Numbered from the stretch's first letter, positions 1,714 through 24,870 are shown. The stretch: 64,000 nucleotides of DNA from Candidatus Saccharimonadales bacterium (GCA_049521895.1 JBEKOJ010000001.1:418717-482716); one strand, 5' to 3'. The notes: generated from the sequence alone by a model not told the origin. Numbers and translations: made by a program.

Positions 1714-3159
1714 ATGAAAATAGGGATTGTCGGTTGGGGCTTGGAGAGCCAGAGCGCATTCAGGTATTTTGGCCCTAGCCACGACTACCTGATAGTTAAC
1801 GAGTCAGCGCAGGATAATTTTCCGCCGGAGTCGAACAAGATCAAAGTCCGTTTCCTGGCCAATAAGGCTCCGATTGGAATTCCAGGACAAGTGCAGGATC
1901 TAAGCTATCTGAAGGGCATCGAAGAATGCGATAAGATCATTTATCAGCCCACGGCTTATTTTAACCTCCAGAAGGTTTTTGGCGACAACCCAGAATTTTG
2001 GAAGAAGGCCACTACTGTTTACGATATTTATTTTGAGAATACTCCAACCCAAAATATAATCGGCGTCACCGGCACCAAAGGCAAAGGCACCACATCTACG
2101 CTGATCGCCAAGATACTCGAGGCCAGCGGCAAAACCGTCCATCTTGGCGGCAATATCGGTACGCCCATCTTGGACTTGCTGCCCAGCATTAAAGCAAGTG
2201 ATTGGCTGGTATGGGAGCTGGCTAACTTCCAGCTAAAAGCTGCTTCTTATAGCCCGCATATTGCCGTCTGTTTAATGATTACTGAAGAACATCTGGACTG
2301 GCATCCGAGCATGGAGGATTACCTGGAGGCCAAAAGTAATCTCTTCCGACACCAAAAAGCCGAAGACGTTGCCATTTACTTTGCTAAAAATGAATACTCC
2401 AAAAAAATAGCCGGGTATTCACCCGGTAAAAAAATTCCTTACTACGAACCGCCAGGAGCATACATTCGCGAAGACGGTGTCATTGTGATTGACGAAACAG
2501 AGGTAATGAACAAGAATGAAGTTAAACTACTGGGCGAACATAATTTACAAAATATTTGTGCTGCCCTTACGGTTGTTTTTGAGGCGCAAGGGAGCGTTGA
2601 CCCCAGTAGAATAGTCCATGGCGGAATTCCACAGGGTCAATCCAGTGGAGCTTTAGCCCCGCTAAACGCCGTAGGCGGCTCCACGTGGATTGACAAAGCA
2701 AAAACAGTATTATCTAGCTTTAGCGGCTTAGAACATCGCTTGGAGTTCGTACGGGCCTTAGATGGCGTAAAATATTACAACGATTCTTTTGCCACCACCC
2801 CCGAGTCAGCAGTGGTCGCCCTAAAGACTTTTAGCGCACCAAAGGTTGTCATCTTGGGCGGATCAGACAAGGGTTTGTCCTTTGACCCGCTTGCCGATGA
2901 GGTTGCCAAAGGAAATGTTCGCAAAGCCGTAGCCATCGGGACTACAGCAGATAAAATAGTCAGTCTACTCAAAGAACACGGCTTCACGAATACCATAACT
3001 GGCTTGAATAAAATGACTGATATCGTGGCAGCTGCCCGCGAAGCTTCTCAGCCTGGCGACGTGGTATTACTAAGTACAGGCTGCGCCAGTTTTGGGCTGT
3101 TTAAGGATTATAAAGACCGCGGCGAACAGTTCAAGAAAGCTGTTCAAGCCCAGCAGTGA
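1714..3159 (+). CDS. murD: UDP-N-acetylmuramoylalanine--D-glutamate ligase
   Basis: 481 aa. Shows the Mur ligase P-loop GVTGTKGKGTT, GLEHRLEF and NDSFATTPES motifs in MurD order. Carries an extra ~31-aa segment (see 2597-2694). Confidence 0.9.
   Translation: MKIGIVGWGLESQSAFRYFGPSHDYLIVNESAQDNFPPESNKIKVRFLANKAPIGIPGQVQDLSYLKGIEECDKIIYQPTAYFNLQKVFGDNPEFWKKATTVYDIYFENTPTQNIIGVTGTKGKGTTSTLIAKILEASGKTVHLGGNIGTPILDLLPSIKASDWLVWELANFQLKAASYSPHIAVCLMITEEHLDWHPSMEDYLEAKSNLFRHQKAEDVAIYFAKNEYSKKIAGYSPGKKIPYYEPPGAYIREDGVIVIDETEVMNKNEVKLLGEHNLQNICAALTVVFEAQGSVDPSRIVHGGIPQGQSSGALAPLNAVGGSTWIDKAKTVLSSFSGLEHRLEFVRALDGVKYYNDSFATTPESAVVALKTFSAPKVVILGGSDKGLSFDPLADEVAKGNVRKAVAIGTTADKIVSLLKEHGFTNTITGLNKMTDIVAAAREASQPGDVVLLSTGCASFGLFKDYKDRGEQFKKAVQAQQ
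2597..2694 (+). other. in-frame 93-nt insertion inside murD containing a 16/17-nt inverted repeat, bracketed by TTGAC direct repeats
   Basis: TTGAC occurs at 2597-2601 and 2690-2694, exactly 93 nt apart. The arms are GTCAATCCAGTGGAGC (2636-2651) and GCTCCACGTGGATTGAC (2678-2694). The encoded ~31 aa lie where E. coli MurD, as I recall its sequence, has no residues. Confidence 0.5.
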
Positions 3160-20102: not shown

Positions 20103-20588
20103 TTATGGTTCAACTCCTTCGAAACGAGCTCGCAGCTGCTCAATCAAACCAGCCAACGATTGCGGGTAAGTTATCTCTACCGCTCTTTCATCGGGACTAT
20201 CTGGCACAGGCTTGAGTCCAACGACCATACGGCTATCCGGCAATACACCGCGCACGATATCACTCCATTCCACCACTGTAATTACCCGGCTTTTTTGCAG
20301 TGACTCTTTCAGCTGGTCAGACACCACGCCGGGCTGGCTCAAGCGGTAAAAATCAAAGTGGTGAATCTCCAGACTTTTAGCCTTGTAGATTTTGCTGAGC
20401 GTGAAAGTCGGGCTGGCAACTTTATCATCGCTGCCCAAACCCCGAGCCAGTCCGCGTACAAAGGTCGTTTTGCCGCCGCCCAGATCAGAGCGCAATTCTA
20501 GGAGTATTGGCGGACTCAGTAGTCTGCCCAGCTGCTCGCCTAGCCTCTCGGTATCGGCGGAAGTGGTAGAGCGCAGCTGCCAAATCAT
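20103..20588 (-). CDS. tsaE: tRNA t6A biosynthesis ATPase TsaE
   Basis: Contains the P-loop SDLGGGKTTFVRGLARGLG. I chose the start at the MIWQL Met; the ORF could begin at 20609. Confidence 0.8.
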   Translation of the reverse strand: MIWQLRSTTSADTERLGEQLGRLLSPPILLELRSDLGGGKTTFVRGLARGLGSDDKVASPTFTLSKIYKAKSLEIHHFDFYRLSQPGVVSDQLKESLQKSRVITVVEWSDIVRGVLPDSRMVVGLKPVPDSPDERAVEITYPQSLAGLIEQLRARFEGVEP

Positions 20589-21876
20589 GTCGGTACTCAT
20601 ATAATGCATATATTACGGCTAGGCCTCCCACGCCGGCAAGTATCGCCGGGTGCAAACTGCCGGATGTTGATGTACCAGCCGTGCTGGAATTCCCTCCTGA
20701 TGAGTTACCGGTACTTATGCCCAGAACAGTCGTACTGTTTGATTTGGTGCTGGAGTTTTTGGCAGCCGGCGGCGCACTGATGACATTTTTGGCGCCGGGG
20801 GTGGCAGCGGTTGTCCATTGCCACAGGCCATCGGCATAAACCCAGGCATAGCCGTCCTTGGCTTTAGTGTAAACATCTGATTGCTCGAGGGTATTGCCCG
20901 AAGGATCAAGAAGCATTACCTGACCACCATTGTTGCTGAGGCTTAACCCGGTTTCTGAAGAATAATATACCCCGAACTGTAGCGGCTGCAGCATAGTGCC
21001 GGCAGGAAAAGTGTATTTATGGGTGGTGCTGATACCGACTTGGATCATAAAACCACTGAGATCGAACGGATGGTTGTTGGAGTTATAAAGCTCAACAAAC
21101 TCATCGTCGGCATCAGTCTGCGGTGGCGCCGGATTGGGTAGGATTTCGGACAGTCGCGGCGCGGCTAGACCAACATCGTCGGCAGGCAGCCCGGCATCTG
21201 AAGAGTTGCCGGTAACGCCTACAACACTAGGCACAGCGCCGCCGGCCTGTTCCAAGCCGGTGGACACGCTGCCGCCGGTACTGACGTCAAGCTGGCAGGC
21301 GTTGTTGCTGTCCAAATCAGCCAGCTGCCACTTATAAATGCCGCCGTTGGCGTAACGATAGTACATGCCTTTGGGGTCCTTACTGCTGGAGGGTACATTT
21401 TGAATCTGGCCGTTAGTGGCAGAAGACCACGATAAGGCGTCAACCGGTGTTTGCGATACGCCCAAGCTGCCCAGGCCAGTTTGTACTATTTGCAAAAATC
21501 CGGCAGTGTCGCCCAAGTTAACAGACAGTTTGCCAGTTGCTACCGCGCCGCAAGTATTCATCCCAACCGAACTGAGCAGAATGGTTTGGCCAATTGCCAG
21601 CTTGACGGCCGGTAGTTGCTGCGAAGACTTACTGACTCCAATATCCAGTGGATTATAACTGTTAAATTCATCCAGCCAATAGCTGCTGAGGTCGGCGATG
21701 TCTTTATCGCTATTGTTTTGTAGAACTAGAAATTCATCACCGGTGATTTTAATTTCTGCAACAGCTAGGGTGGGTGGCACCGCCATCATAGATGGCCCAG
21801 CAGCTAATGTCAGCGGCTGGACAGCCATAATTAGCCAGGTAAGCATAAGAAATACTACTATAAAATATTTCTTCAT
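20485..21876 (-). CDS. secreted/anchored protein with two lamin-tail-like domains and a C-terminal TM helix
   Basis: 463 aa with a signal-like N-terminus. LSEILPNPAPPQTDADDEFVELYN and AEIKITGDEFLVLQN are LTD-type motifs. The 3' end overlaps tsaE by about 100 nt in another frame. Confidence 0.7.
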   Translation of the reverse strand: MKKYFIVVFLMLTWLIMAVQPLTLAAGPSMMAVPPTLAVAEIKITGDEFLVLQNNSDKDIADLSSYWLDEFNSYNPLDIGVSKSSQQLPAVKLAIGQTILLSSVGMNTCGAVATGKLSVNLGDTAGFLQIVQTGLGSLGVSQTPVDALSWSSATNGQIQNVPSSSKDPKGMYYRYANGGIYKWQLADLDSNNACQLDVSTGGSVSTGLEQAGGAVPSVVGVTGNSSDAGLPADDVGLAAPRLSEILPNPAPPQTDADDEFVELYNSNNHPFDLSGFMIQVGISTTHKYTFPAGTMLQPLQFGVYYSSETGLSLSNNGGQVMLLDPSGNTLEQSDVYTKAKDGYAWVYADGLWQWTTAATPGAKNVISAPPAAKNSSTKSNSTTVLGISTGNSSGGNSSTAGTSTSGSLHPAILAGVGGLAVIYALYEYRHDLAAALYHFRRYREARRAAGQTTESANTPRIAL

Positions 21877-21978
21877 ATGCTCAAATTAGGCACTTATACC
21901 CGCACTTACAGTAAACAGATTATACCTTATCTCCCCAAAGTCCTTGACGACTTAGGGTACTTGGTGTACCATGACTTT

Positions 21979-22359
21979 ATGATTAATGGGATGAATGAAA
22001 AGCAAGCGAGGGAAGCGCTTAAGCGCCTGTTTAACGGTGTGAACGGCAATCAGATAACCCGCAAACAAATACTGGATAAAATCAGCTATAAGACCCTGAC
22101 AAACTACAGCCCCGCTCTAGTAGGCTATGGGTTGTGGACTCCTAAGAGAAGTGGCCGCAAGTATACGTCTTGGGAATTGACCGATAAGGGTAAGGAGGTG
22201 CTAGTTCTAGGCGCCCCGACCATACCAGAACAACAGACGCTAGTCCCCCGAGTAACTTCTGACTCCGATATCTACGCTGAGGCTATCCGTATCACCAATG
22301 AGTTCAATGACCGCTACAAGGCCGGTAAACACGAATGGAGGTTAGTAGAGAAAGGATAA
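21979..22359 (+). CDS. hypothetical IS passenger protein (possible winged-helix DNA binding)
   Basis: The ORF-track start at 21877 lies outside the IS boundary, so I start at the first internal Met. The protein is basic and helix-rich with no firm motif. Confidence 0.45.
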   Translation: MINGMNEKQAREALKRLFNGVNGNQITRKQILDKISYKTLTNYSPALVGYGLWTPKRSGRKYTSWELTDKGKEVLVLGAPTIPEQQTLVPRVTSDSDIYAEAIRITNEFNDRYKAGKHEWRLVEKG

Positions 22360-22377
22360 GCTGTTAATGCTCATTGC

Positions 22378-22547
22378 CCTGAACAGGCCTAAACGGGGAG
22401 AATCACCTTGAGAAAGTGCCCCAAACCTGTTCAGGACAGTGCGCACTAGCGATAGCGTACAGGTGGGGTGATACGGGAGGTCTCCGTAAATCCACGTGGT
22501 GGTGACTAGGCTGGCCAAGCTGAAACCCCGTATCCGCCCATCTGTAC
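22378..22547. ncRNA. strongly structured non-coding segment inside the IS
   Basis: A perfect 10-bp stem joins CCTGAACAGG (22378-22387) and CCTGTTCAGG (22426-22435). A second 21-position stem (18 Watson-Crick pairs, 1 G-U and 2 mismatches) joins 22457-22477 and 22527-22547. No ORF is present. Confidence 0.45.
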
Positions 22548-22585
22548 ACTATCAAGCTTATTTTAACTTTTTAATTCCTAATTGT

Positions 22586-22624
22586 CAACAGCTATCTCTG
22601 TTGATTACGCTGTACTGCTATAAT
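22586..22624 (+). promoter_or_regulatory. internal promoter TGCTATAAT preceded by dyad CAACAG-N6-CTGTTG
   Basis: The dyad spans 22586-22603. TATAAT lies at 22619-22624, followed by AAGGAG and a GTG start. Confidence 0.45.
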
Positions 22625-22646
22625 AATAGCATAAGGAGCAAGCCTC

Positions 22647-22766
22647 GTGCCCAAAAAAGACAACCCAATCCCTTCTACAACCAAAAATGAGTTTTTTAGG
22701 GTATTAAAAAAGGTTAGTCGCAAGACAAAGCAGAAACCCAAAGAAGCATCACCGAAAGCGCATTAA
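22647..22766 (+). CDS. possible 39-aa lysine-rich micro-protein
   Basis: GTG start 8 nt after AAGGAG. The peptide is VPKKDNPIPSTTKNEFFRVLKKVSRKTKQKPKEASPKAH. It is not in the ORF track because it is below the size cutoff. Confidence 0.3.
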   Translation: MPKKDNPIPSTTKNEFFRVLKKVSRKTKQKPKEASPKAH

Positions 22767-23230
22767 TGAATCCGGCGGTCTATTAATATCTGTAGTGTTT
22801 TAATCACACCCTCTATAATTGCCAAGATAGCGCCGCCAACTACCGCACCTGTATAGAATCGTTGAGATCTACCGTACGCTTTCAAAGAATCATCTACTAA
22901 ACCAGCGGGGTATATAAAAAACTTCTTACCTATAAAGTGGCGGCCTTTAATAGAAGTTACATATAAAGTCCAGTTACTACTAAGCCAATCTATGTATCCG
23001 TGTTCCTTAGATGCAACTAATATTGCGGCAACAGTACTCTCGCTTGGTTTTCTGAGTTTCCGAGATTTTATGTAGTCTTGAGTGAGGGCGAGCAATGCCT
23101 CGTTTTGTGCCTTGAAGGTTTGGGTGTGAGAAAGTATCTCGTACCTATTAGAATCTATGTACCTTACTAACTTGTACATATCTTTCATCTCTGCCATACG
23201 CTGAATTATACCTCTTGTCTGCGCAATCAT
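22763..23230 (-). CDS. hypothetical IS passenger protein with C-terminal hydrophobic helix
   Basis: 155 aa. Its start overlaps the transposase stop by 4 nt (ATGA), implying co-translation with the transposase. Confidence 0.55.
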   Translation of the reverse strand: MIAQTRGIIQRMAEMKDMYKLVRYIDSNRYEILSHTQTFKAQNEALLALTQDYIKSRKLRKPSESTVAAILVASKEHGYIDWLSSNWTLYVTSIKGRHFIGKKFFIYPAGLVDDSLKAYGRSQRFYTGAVVGGAILAIIEGVIKTLQILIDRRIH

Positions 23231-24111
23231 GTCTTACTCCGTGCAGATATGCTTACCTTGTCCATCAAAGCCCAAAACATAGGCTGAAAATCGTTTCTAT
23301 GGCTCTGCCTAAATGCATATTCGTTCACGTAGTTTTGTAAATGCTGAGAGCTAACGTGTCTATATACGCCCCGCATTCCACGCTTCATGTTACCCCAAAA
23401 GTTCTCAATGTTTTGGGTGTGAGTATCACCATCAACGTAATGCCTTTTGCCATGCTGGATAGTCTCATGGTAATAGCCTTTTTTATAAAGGCGTTTGTAG
23501 GAGCGGTGCTCATCAGAATAGATGGTAGACTCTCGCTGGATGTTCTCTTCAACTTCCCGTAATAACACTAACTCACCAGCAGACTTAACGTGCTTGGCTC
23601 TGACTACTCCGCCACGCTCGGCCATACCAAAGACCACAGGATTATCCTTCCTTGACTTATGAGGCTTACGAATGGTAGAGCGCTTTAGCGGGTCGGCGTG
23701 CATATAAGTTTCATCAATCTCAATTTCACCGTATAATCGCTCGCCATCATCACTCATCATAGATCTAATCTGGTGAAACATCCGCCACGCGGTTTTGTAA
23801 GTTACCCCTGTTTCACGCTCTAACTGTTTGGCTGAGATTCCGGCTCTAGTAGCGGCCATAATGAATATAGCCTCAAACCATATAGTTAAAGGTGTACTAG
23901 ATTTGTGGAAGATGGTATTTGCAGTAGGAGATGTAGAACCACCACAGTATTCGCAAGCATAAACTTTCATACTCCTTCGTTTGTGGTGAGGAGTTATCTT
24001 CTCACACTTCTTGCAAGTTATGCCCTCTGGGTACAGATATTCTTTCAACCATTCCAGACAAGCATCCTCATTTGGGAAATCTATCTTTAACTGTTGTCGT
24101 GTATATTTCAT
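23227..24111 (-). CDS. IS1595-family (ISXO2-like) DDE transposase
   Basis: 294 aa. Has an N-terminal Cys-rich zinc ribbon (CKKCE...CEYCG), an HTH (GISAKQLERETGVTYKTAWRM), EIDETY and DEHRSY acidic motifs. Confidence 0.9.
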   Translation of the reverse strand: MKYTRQQLKIDFPNEDACLEWLKEYLYPEGITCKKCEKITPHHKRRSMKVYACEYCGGSTSPTANTIFHKSSTPLTIWFEAIFIMAATRAGISAKQLERETGVTYKTAWRMFHQIRSMMSDDGERLYGEIEIDETYMHADPLKRSTIRKPHKSRKDNPVVFGMAERGGVVRAKHVKSAGELVLLREVEENIQRESTIYSDEHRSYKRLYKKGYYHETIQHGKRHYVDGDTHTQNIENFWGNMKRGMRGVYRHVSSQHLQNYVNEYAFRQSHRNDFQPMFWALMDKVSISARSKT

Positions 24112-24342
24112 GACGATATTAAACCTCCTTTCAATGAGGTTAAACTGAACTTAATTGAATATTTTTAGGTTTTTCGTTAATTAACCCTTTTAATTAACCC
24201 TTACTGTAGGTCAGGGTATAAGTGCCTCAAATTATATCTCTCAGCTTACTCTCAGCAAGCGCTTGTGCTAATAATTATGTTGTGGATATTAACGCAAGTT
24301 CAGTAGTAGCGTGATAATTGCTAGACGGCTATACTGGAGGGT

Positions 24343-24870
24343 ATGTTAAGGTTAAGCGCTAGCCTTAGAAACCAGCCGGTACTGAGTTTAAGGTCCGGCG
24401 ACCAAATCACTACGGCCATCGAACCGATTATTAATCCGCATAACCTAAAAATAGTCGGCTGGTGGTGTAAAGCGCCCGCTGGCAAAGAACTGGTATTACT
24501 AGCAGACAACGTGCGCGAGATTATGCCAAATGGCCTGGCCGTGAACGACGATGCCGACCTTAGCGACCGGAAAGATTTAGTCCGTCACGATGATATTCTA
24601 AAAATCCGTTTCCAGCTGCTAGATAAACTGGTCAAAACCAAGCGTCAAAAGTTGGGTAAAGTCAGCGACTTTAGCTATAACGACGGCTTGTTCGTGCAAA
24701 AACTATACGTAGCGCGCAGTCTGGCCAAAGTTTTCTCCAAAGATGAAACTTTACTGATTGACCGAACGCAGATTTTGGAAGTTACTGATAATTATATTTT
24801 AGTACGCGATAGTGATGTAAAGGCAACCGAAGAAGAGCTGGCTGGTGCGCTGGGTACGGTTGCCGCTTAG
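24343..24870 (+). CDS. PRC-barrel-like domain protein
   Basis: 175 aa with two repeats of a PRC-barrel-like pattern (VLSLRSGDQI..., GKVSDFSYND...). The assignment is tentative. Confidence 0.5.
   Translation: MLRLSASLRNQPVLSLRSGDQITTAIEPIINPHNLKIVGWWCKAPAGKELVLLADNVREIMPNGLAVNDDADLSDRKDLVRHDDILKIRFQLLDKLVKTKRQKLGKVSDFSYNDGLFVQKLYVARSLAKVFSKDETLLIDRTQILEVTDNYILVRDSDVKATEEELAGALGTVAA

Follow-up and report, generated by a model that had tools for sequence, protein, structure and literature searches.

A recently transposed IS1595-family transporter element with a clade-wide micro-protein gene and a putative structured RNA in a Saccharimonadales genome

The locus

A 64,000-nucleotide stretch of DNA from a Candidatus Saccharimonadales bacterium (GCA_049521895.1, JBEKOJ010000001.1:418717-482716), referred to here as the window and used at its full length for all coordinates, carries a member of the IS1595 family of insertion sequences (IS) immediately upstream of a gene for a lamin-tail-domain (LTD) surface protein. 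The element proper occupies positions 21889-24226 (2338 bp) and encloses, between its terminal inverted repeats, a transposase gene, three further open reading frames (ORFs), and a stretch predicted to encode a structured RNA. We read it, at a probability of roughly 0.85, as an intact and recently transposed IS of the transporter type (tIS) in which a micro-protein gene belongs to the core of the clade, a gene of 126 amino acids (aa) and the RNA form a module of a sub-clade, and a 155-aa gene is a passenger, and whose insertion displaced the candidate LTD promoter. The features on which this reading draws are, in order along the window:

20485-21876, minus strand: LTD surface-protein gene (Pfam LTD, 4e-16), coding sequence intact
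21881-21888, no strand: left copy of the 8-bp target-site duplication TCAAATTA, abutting the inverted repeat
21889-21914, plus strand: inverted repeat of the transposase-distal end, GGCACTTATACCCGCACTTACAGTAA, matching the opposite end at 23/26 positions
21944-21972, plus strand: promoter-like site of the 126-aa gene, TTGACG-17-TACCAT, a consensus match only, ending 6 nt before the ATG (leaderless)
21979-22359, plus strand: 126-aa accessory gene, probably for a winged-helix DNA-binding protein (positional homologues, weak profile matches)
22363-22553, minus strand: putative structured RNA of ~190 nt with two long hairpins (22451-22553, here hairpin A, and 22365-22448), from folding and covariation
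22560-22588, minus strand: predicted RNA promoter, TTGACA-17-TAAAAT, matching consensus at 11/12 positions, with a start near 22553 at the base of hairpin A
22616-22638, plus strand: extended -10 (TGCTATAAT) and Shine-Dalgarno AAGGAG of the micro-ORF, in a segment with 2 differences per 112 nt in L045
22647-22766, plus strand: gene for a basic micro-protein of 39 aa (MPKKDNPIPSTTKNEFFRVLKKVSRKTK...), conserved clade-wide and convergent with the transposase operon
22763-23230, minus strand: 155-aa passenger gene, ATGA-coupled to the transposase gene (4-nt overlap with the transposase stop)
23227-24111, minus strand: IS1595-family transposase gene, 294 aa, zinc ribbon and DDE domain (NCBIfam and Pfam matches)
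24177-24202, no strand: perfect tandem sub-terminal repeat of 13 bp, TTAATTAACCCTT twice, adjoining the transposase-side inverted repeat
24201-24226, minus strand: inverted repeat of the transposase end, matching the opposite end at 23/26 positions
24227-24234, no strand: right copy of the target-site duplication TCAAATTA, abutting the inverted repeat
24231-24258, minus strand: candidate native LTD promoter, displaced, TTGCTG-16-TATAAT, a consensus match only

Element limits and family assignment

The 26-bp terminal pair is the longest inverted repeat in the region. The element ends begin GGCACTTAT, and the flanking duplication, TCAAATTA, occurs twice in the whole window, both times directly against an inverted repeat. 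An earlier reading of this DNA (the original prediction) had called the repeats, with their 23 of 26 matching positions, and the perfect 8-bp duplication, had counted 4 nt between the LTD start codon (ATG, 21876-21874) and the duplication and 12 nt between that codon and the end of the IS, and had put passenger genes within the repeats. The repeat search and the ORF map agree with it, save that its length of 2337 bp and its end at 24233, duplications included, are corrected to 2338 bp and 24234. The three mismatches between the repeats are no sign of age, since relatives have the identical left/right asymmetry. The G+C content is 43.4% in the element and 47.4% in the window. The tandem repeat of TTAATTAACCCTT at 24177-24202 may serve as a binding site near the terminus or as part of a promoter.

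The family membership proposed earlier is confirmed by matches of the transposase to the NCBIfam model for IS1595 family transposases (NF033547; 194.7 bits, cut-off 75), to the Pfam domain DDE_Tnp_IS1595 (PF12762; 1.5e-35), and to Zn_ribbon_IS1595 (PF12760; 25.4 bits, exactly at the cut-off). In an alignment of eight clade members, the catalytic residues D133, D200, and K243 show no variation, E236 is shared by seven members with Asp in the eighth (L040), for a signature of DDEK, and the zinc-ribbon cysteines C18, C33, C53, and C56 are conserved. These features would fit the ISNwi1-like group of ISfinder (DDEK, zinc ribbon, ends ggnnatTAT, 8-bp duplication, and passenger forms of 1.75-4.75 kb), a tentative placement that compares group characters and not reference sequences. 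The annotated IS1595 transposases of the plasmid collection are all distant, at most 38% identical, and more than 120 metagenome protein clusters, several of them labelled Saccharimonadales, are 57-71% identical to the transposase. Scans of viral contigs gave no match to the transposase, the 126-aa family, or the RNA pattern.

Within the IS1595 family, a zinc ribbon is N-terminal in all groups but IS1016, the target-site duplication is of 8 bp, and the classical form consists of a lone transposase gene (PMC8101967). The element has the DDE_Tnp_IS1595 domain, the zinc ribbon, the 8-bp duplication, and short terminal repeats, and it departs from the classical single-gene IS by three further ORFs and one RNA inside the repeats. 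The tIS class comprises IS-like elements with passenger genes between the repeats (bioRxiv 10.1101/2021.05.26.445724) and is described as confined to the IS1595 and IS66 families (bioRxiv 10.1101/2021.05.26.445724; PMC3129680, citing Siguier et al. 2009). Because the extra ORFs and the RNA lie within the repeats, the element is classed as a tIS variant and not as a classical IS. In line with this class, the 155-aa gene recurs in other slots and contexts, and relatives carry Fic, NYN, and Panacea genes.

Evidence for recent transposition

In exact protein-sequence look-ups, more than 20 metagenome contigs drawn from many samples proved to have the element at this very site, and all of these filled contigs are 100% identical to the window across 21500-24600. 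A look-up of the neighbouring 175-aa protein led to three contigs (L010, L013, and L015) in which the LTD and 175-aa genes are adjacent. In each, the predicted empty site, ...CATATGCTCAAATTATATCTC..., for which the original prediction had proposed a search, is present verbatim, with a single TCAAATTA and undisturbed flanks. Over ~10 kb of flanking sequence, the empty-site contigs are 99.1% identical to the window and the filled contigs 100% identical, so the insertion occurred after two very close lineages had separated. Among the 23 contigs read, 18 have the filled allele and 5 the empty one. An identical left end of the element also follows another flank (...GAGTGATA and then GGCACTT) in two independent assemblies (L031 and L057), and the element is therefore present at two or more sites, mobile, and recent. 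The insertion is thus genuine and fresh, as had been claimed, given the exact empty site in a 99.1%-identical lineage and the second context; as an event it is ordinary.

As a detail of the second site, both contigs (L031 1-158 and L057 1-158, from Joint Genome Institute and European Nucleotide Archive assemblies) read ...CCCTTGAGTGATA before the GGCACTT of the identical element end, and both start at the same base, 156 nt before the IS. The shared starting base suggests that the second site lies beside another repeat or an assembly break.

Related elements and their cargo

Ten relatives were ascertained through the transposase, six from species genomes (L039-L044) and four fetched by protein (L052-L055). 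The clade lies mainly in Saccharimonadia, with one of the six genome relatives in a metagenome-assembled genome labelled Limnocylindria. Nine relatives are complete and measure 1758-3644 bp, the tenth (L055) being a truncated contig, and the minimal form found in the clade is 1463 bp long (L048). Ends in GGCACTTATMCC are common to all clade relatives and read GGCAATTAT in L039, L042, L048, and L051; several relatives keep ACCATGAG in the transposase-distal repeat. An exact 8-bp duplication, mostly AT-rich, flanks seven of the nine complete relatives (L039, L041-L044, L052, and L053); in L040 the duplication matches at 7/8 positions, and L054 has a 9-bp repeat, ACAGGCTCA, with its register offset by one base. 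Among the passengers of these relatives are an NYN domain protein, a protein of the Fic type, an ATPase (AAA_14/DUF4143), and a SocA_Panacea antitoxin that has another gene beside it. The statement in the original prediction that the element holds more cargo than usual therefore stands for the IS1595 family overall and fails within the clade, where cargo is the rule (1.46-3.64 kb).

One further element, L045, is of mosaic composition: over its first 112 nt it departs from window positions 22534-22645 at only two sites but diverges beyond them, its micro-ORF carries many, mostly silent, substitutions, and its transposase is 58% identical to that of the window. Near-identity over 112 nt and divergence elsewhere argue that modules recombine between elements. 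Independent assemblies break inside the element at 22708 (L030), at 22784-22802 (L006-L008), and at 22924 (L033), breaks that co-occurring elements sharing and recombining modules would explain. In addition, L032 (1012-1139) follows the window without a difference as far as 22924, a point within the 155-aa ORF, and then continues into unrelated sequence that resembles a Fic-type N-terminus (NLALLRPSG...), like the Fic start in L041; L032 is either a mosaic element or a chimeric assembly.

The micro-protein gene

The micro-ORF is the only non-transposase segment common to the window element and all of its relatives. Homologues of 26-41 residues are present in 10 of the 10 transposase-ascertained relatives, or 11 of 11 elements when the window is counted, always on the strand opposite the transposase and reading inward from the far repeat. 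The encoded peptides are very basic, with the consensus MNKKxKPxPxxTKxEFFKVLKKVSRKxK. A metagenome scan with the peptide alignment added seven loci, each with a clade repeat and/or transposase, and the micro-ORF is also present in L036; it is absent from a Sulfitobacter IS1595 whose transposase is 38% identical. Within a 15-codon core, third positions vary at 15 of 15 codons, first positions at 8, and second positions at 6, and pairwise codon differences comprise 382 synonymous and 240 non-synonymous changes. By this codon-position and synonymous bias the micro-ORF is really coding, which fits purifying selection, and what had been proposed as a possible micro-ORF is a real conserved gene. Its distribution and coding signature make it a second core gene of the clade and not incidental cargo.

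In most copies the ATG follows a -10 box by 6-8 nt and the layout is leaderless; the window copy and L045 instead have the extended -10 (TGCTATAAT) and AAGGAG, and the start codon in the window is GTG. At its 3' end the micro-ORF either runs into or directly adjoins the 3' end of the transposase operon: in the window it shares 4 nt with the 155-aa gene, and in L053 and L045 it overlaps the transposase gene itself. The two transcripts must consequently converge. Gene callers rarely predict the micro-ORF, and a full HMMER search through 1.84 billion representative proteins yielded a single match. Nothing was found for the micro-protein in Pfam, NCBIfam, or PADLOC, and its PHROG and PDB matches were at chance level only.

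The 126-aa gene and the structured stretch

An ORF of about 126 aa on the strand opposite the transposase had been anticipated and was located at 21979-22359. Its start is favoured over a 160-aa reading across the IS end because a leaderless-type promoter ends 6 nt before the ATG. L053 and L042 each have a homologue (147 aa at 37% identity and 152 aa at 23%, respectively) that is placed and oriented alike, and the only match among 5.8 billion proteins is a 158-aa reading of the same ORF on the second-site contigs (P0005). In PDB profile searches, the family profile matched only weakly to ScoC/Hpr (E = 0.075) and to an unnamed predicted regulator (1xma, E = 1.2), and the protein alone matched weakly to Sso10a (E = 0.078); we take ScoC/Hpr to be a helix-turn-helix regulator of the MarR type. 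The predicted secondary structure runs from helices through a beta-hairpin to a long C-terminal helix. No Pfam match was found, PHROG and NCBIfam matches were at chance level only (E 0.06-0.2), and PADLOC reported nothing for the 126-aa protein, its two homologues, or the 155-aa and micro-ORF proteins. The 126-aa product is probably a winged-helix DNA-binding protein.

Downstream of this gene, the stretch at 22363-22553 folds with z-scores of -5.6 (plus strand) and -7.0 (minus strand), in agreement with the highly structured non-coding stretch of the original prediction, and it is conserved in L053 and so not incidental cargo. L053 comes from an unrelated sample, its transposase is 66% identical, and its modules have the same order: a 126-aa homologue, a homologous spacer of ~82% identity, and the micro-ORF. 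The window and L053 both retain every one of the 55 consensus pairs; nine pairs survive by compensatory changes on both sides, and no pair is lost. Slid controls gave 0-2 compensatory pairs with 38-46% of cells paired, versus 100% for the real structure. On the transposase-sense strand, seven G-U pairs are conserved in the window and L053. The promoter reads TTGACA-17-TATTAT in L053, and the equivalent place in L042, beside its weaker 126-aa homologue, reads TTGACA-17-TATAAT. A covariance model (R1), which scores the RNA at 242-246 bits, matched the window element and its identical copies, L053, and a fragment in L045, and none of the other clade members examined. With gathering or E-value thresholds alike, no Rfam family was found in the element, in L053, or in the spacers of other relatives, the best score in the element being E = 3.8 to a human long non-coding RNA model. 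A structure kept through compensatory changes, together with a conserved promoter, points to a conserved RNA-like element that would form, with the 126-aa gene, a module of a sub-clade.

Other clade members also have long structured non-coding spacers near the micro-ORF, with z-scores down to -8.6 and -10 (L048 296-700, L040 element 1041-1600, and L044 element 1041-1280; no Rfam match). These were rejected as homologues of the window RNA, to which they are unrelated in sequence.

The 155-aa gene

The 155-aa ORF is coupled to the transposase gene, as had been described, through an ATGA with a 4-nt overlap. A 19-residue segment near its C-terminus (residues 125-143) has a mean Kyte-Doolittle hydrophobicity of 1.87 and looks membrane-spanning. 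The protein has only three homologues, at 50-54% identity. One lies in a different slot and orientation and starts inside a clade repeat (L036, 299-787, with its start codon within GGCACTTATACCATGAGC...), and another adjoins a gene for an MmeI-like restriction-modification enzyme, within an island that also has Fic and MazE genes. Pfam matches were far below threshold (best E = 0.057), those in PHROG and NCBIfam were at chance level (E 0.06-0.2), and PDB profile searches with the family returned nothing. In these placements the gene behaves as genuine shufflable cargo, possibly linked to defence or addiction.

The LTD gene and its promoters

In the empty allele, the LTD-sense strand reads TTGCTG-16-TATAAT-8-ATG. 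In the window, the -10 box (TATAAT, 24231-24236) and the -35 box (TTGCTG, 24253-24258), both on the minus strand, lie on the far side of the element: the duplication takes in the last four bases of the -10 box, the LTD side now reads CCTAAT, and the intact TATAAT is 2.3 kb from the LTD gene. The displaced motif of the original prediction holds insofar as a consensus TATAAT lies beyond the element, and its coordinates (24234-24246) were slightly off. The promoter scan did not call this site because its -35 box matches at only 3/6 positions. Of the 62 long ORFs in the window, at least 14 have a start preceded by a -10 hexamer at 4-10 nt, and only 12 have a Shine-Dalgarno sequence; leaderless mRNAs thus look common in the host genome, which makes a leaderless LTD mRNA from the displaced promoter plausible. 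Examples of such -10-like hexamers without a Shine-Dalgarno sequence are found at ORF starts 1714, 5157, 27040, 39379, 43061, and 50659.

Three candidates could replace the displaced promoter. A TTGAGC-16-TATAGT site (21884-21857) survives the insertion and would serve a 453-aa start that some gene callers chose; a TATAAT at 21924-21919 faces out of the IS with a poor -35 box; and read-through could come from the RNA promoter, which is oriented toward the LTD gene. A clade element with 64% transposase identity also lies, in the same orientation, in the syntenic LTD/175-aa intergenic region of another Saccharimonadales species (L054, 743-3000), where the LTD and 175-aa proteins are 49% and 62% identical, respectively, and the LTD gene is at 3052. 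This element is inserted 51 nt before the LTD ATG and has ACAGGCTC(A) as its direct repeat, and its different duplication, its position, and its transposase identity mark it as an independent hit on the same region. Two independent insertions upstream of LTD could mean a hot spot or selection.

Beyond the element and its target, Rfam identified 12 tRNA genes in the window (5018-55737), a dense set of the kind that suits a small and compact genome.

Alternative explanations

Should the arrangement be ancestral, the empty site would stem from precise excision or from recombination with an uninterrupted allele, and the insertion would not be fresh. Such a history would accord with filled and empty alleles that split between lineages (99.1% identity) instead of segregating in one clone, and with the related element in the same intergenic region of another species. 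The empty site, however, has exactly one TCAAATTA and intact flanks, the filled copies are all 100% identical, the identical element is also found at another site, and the element in L054 differs in its transposase (64% identity), its duplication (ACAGGCTC), and its distance from the ATG (51 nt). The exact empty site and the differing position and duplication of the L054 element led to the rejection of an ancestral insertion, which we regard as very improbable. A stronger competitor, to which we accord a minority share of belief, holds that the accessory genes are toxin-antitoxin, addiction, or defence cargo that is merely transported, such that the 155-aa gene, and possibly the 126-aa gene with the RNA, would have no role in transposition. 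Relatives do carry Fic, NYN, and a SocA_Panacea antitoxin with its neighbouring gene, a 155-aa homologue sits beside an MmeI-like enzyme in a Fic/MazE island, the slot and orientation of the 155-aa gene vary between elements, and a convergent gene with an antisense RNA resembles the 3'-overlapping layouts of type I toxin-antitoxin systems. Set against this, no PADLOC, Pfam, PHROG, or NCBIfam family was found for the 155-aa, 126-aa, or micro-protein products, the 126-aa protein resembles a DNA-binding winged helix and not a toxin, and the micro-ORF is universal in the clade, unlike true cargo.

For the structured stretch, the two hairpins might instead constitute a bidirectional intrinsic terminator or insulator between the convergent 126-aa transcript and the divergent promoters, or a palindrome that acts at the DNA level as a protein-binding site or is the relic of a small palindromic repeat. 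Since there are only two full sequences, and L053 folds equally on both strands, this is a serious rival, albeit one that we think less likely than an RNA. It draws on a T-rich run (CAAGCTTATTTTAACTTTTTAATT) after hairpin A on the plus strand, on folding far better than that of shuffles on both strands, on the equal folding of the L053 strands, on the lack of an Rfam match, and on the unrelated structured spacers of other clade members. It is countered by a promoter that matches consensus at 11/12 positions, would fire exactly into the base of hairpin A, is conserved in L053, and is also read in L042, as well as by stems of 23-27 bp with apical regions of 38-49 nt, far above the size of intrinsic terminators, and by the seven G-U pairs conserved on the transposase-sense strand. 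A dispersed repeat resembling a miniature inverted-repeat transposable element was ruled out, there being no further copies of the hairpins in the 64-kb window. That the RNA guides or programmes the transposase, as a bridge RNA or omega RNA would, is scarcely credible. The RNA does lie inside the element, has two long hairpins with internal loops, and in the window copy holds GGCACUU, the first 7 nt of the inverted repeat; yet 7 nt is also the longest match of the RNA to the IS ends or target, a length reached in 50-113 of 200 shuffles, and the loop segment with GGCACUU is deleted in L053. Moreover, the transposase is a DDE enzyme with sequence-diverse, AT-rich duplications, and the RNA is missing from most clade members. 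The guide idea was accordingly disfavoured, with complementarity to ends and target no better than in shuffles and the match gone in L053.

Several observations weigh against our own reading of the element as a tIS with core, sub-clade, and passenger parts. For the micro-protein and the 126-aa and 155-aa products, no family or solved structure gives a convincing match, and the AlphaFold2 models of the 126-aa protein (single sequence) and of the 155-aa protein (four-sequence alignment), with predicted local distance difference test scores of 40.5 and 41.9, respectively, are too poor for use of the fold. The covariation of the RNA comes from two full-length sequences plus one fragment, and its strand is assigned mainly from the promoter, since the two strands differ clearly in folding energy in the window (-103.8 versus -93.5 kcal/mol) but not in L053 (-100.2 versus -99.2 kcal/mol). 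A clean terminator is missing from the RNA, and the same hairpins would also be conserved if they formed a bidirectional terminator. The native LTD promoter is a consensus match only (-35 box 3/6), and with an intact LTD gene and a filled allele that dominates (18/23 contigs read), the insertion is not obviously disabling.

Interpretation and significance

In the reading that we favour, the transposase would bind the 26-bp repeats and cut the target with an 8-bp stagger, like other members of the family. The RNA, transcribed from its own strong promoter, would be cis-antisense to the spacer of a transcript running from the 126-aa gene to the micro-ORF, and the micro-peptide, its convergent 3'-overlapping transcript, or both would modulate transposase expression or transposition. 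At the target, the insertion separates a consensus -10 box from a putatively leaderless LTD gene, whose expression would be lower or would rely on other promoters, with the TTGAGC-16-TATAGT site and transcription outward from the IS, read-through from the RNA promoter included, as candidates. More tentatively, and with more doubt than confidence, the clade might be a multi-component transposon in which the micro-protein, the sub-clade winged-helix protein, and the cis-antisense RNA tune transposition or outward transcription, and in which repeated independent insertions upstream of LTD, as in the window and L054, switch a surface protein in episymbionts.

The locus offers a clean natural pair of filled and empty alleles, with an insertion between -10 box and start codon, in an uncultured Saccharimonadales population with reduced genomes, and with this pair existing metatranscriptomes could give a direct view of how an IS rewires expression in a bacterium of the Candidate Phyla Radiation. 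More broadly, a tIS of the IS1595 family can hold conserved non-transposase parts that gene callers overlook. If the micro-protein or the RNA regulates transposition, a new layer of control would be added to a very widespread IS family, and such regulatory parts could serve the still sparse genetic toolbox for Patescibacteria.

Comparison with known systems

The class to which the element belongs is already known (tIS), and the micro-protein gene and the structured RNA, neither of which is described for IS1595 in the literature searched, appear to be undescribed. With the tIS of IS1595 described by Siguier, Gagnevin and Chandler (2009), the element has in common a single zinc-ribbon/DDE transposase, unrelated passengers inside the repeats, short repeats starting GG, 8-bp duplications, and sizes of 1.5-4 kb. 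The present clade differs in a transposase at most 38% identical to annotated plasmid-borne IS1595, in its occurrence mainly in Saccharimonadia, in the micro-protein core gene, and in the sub-clade structured RNA with its winged-helix gene.

With the bridge RNA of IS110 and the omega RNA of IS200/605, the element shares a structured non-coding RNA encoded within an insertion sequence. Those RNAs, however, partner DEDD recombinases or TnpB/IscB and pair with target or donor DNA, whereas the transposase here is of the DDE type and complementarity is at chance level. A parallel also exists with RNA-OUT of IS10/Tn10, which pairs with the 5' end of the transposase mRNA: both would be structured, element-encoded small RNAs with a strong promoter of their own and antisense to an element transcript. 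The putative RNA described here, of ~190 nt and two hairpins, shares its strand with the transposase gene and lies over 1 kb downstream, and, unlike RNA-OUT, it runs antisense to the spacer that separates the 126-aa gene from the micro-ORF; at 22363-22553 it does not overlap the 5' end of the transposase mRNA, the transposase start being at 24111. Finally, IS66, with TnpA, TnpB, and TnpC, and IS21, with IstB, are IS families with conserved small accessory genes, and the clade resembles them in that a conserved extra gene accompanies the transposase throughout. It differs in the nature of that gene, which here encodes a micro-protein of 26-41 residues, is usually leaderless, and lies, convergent, outside the transposase operon.

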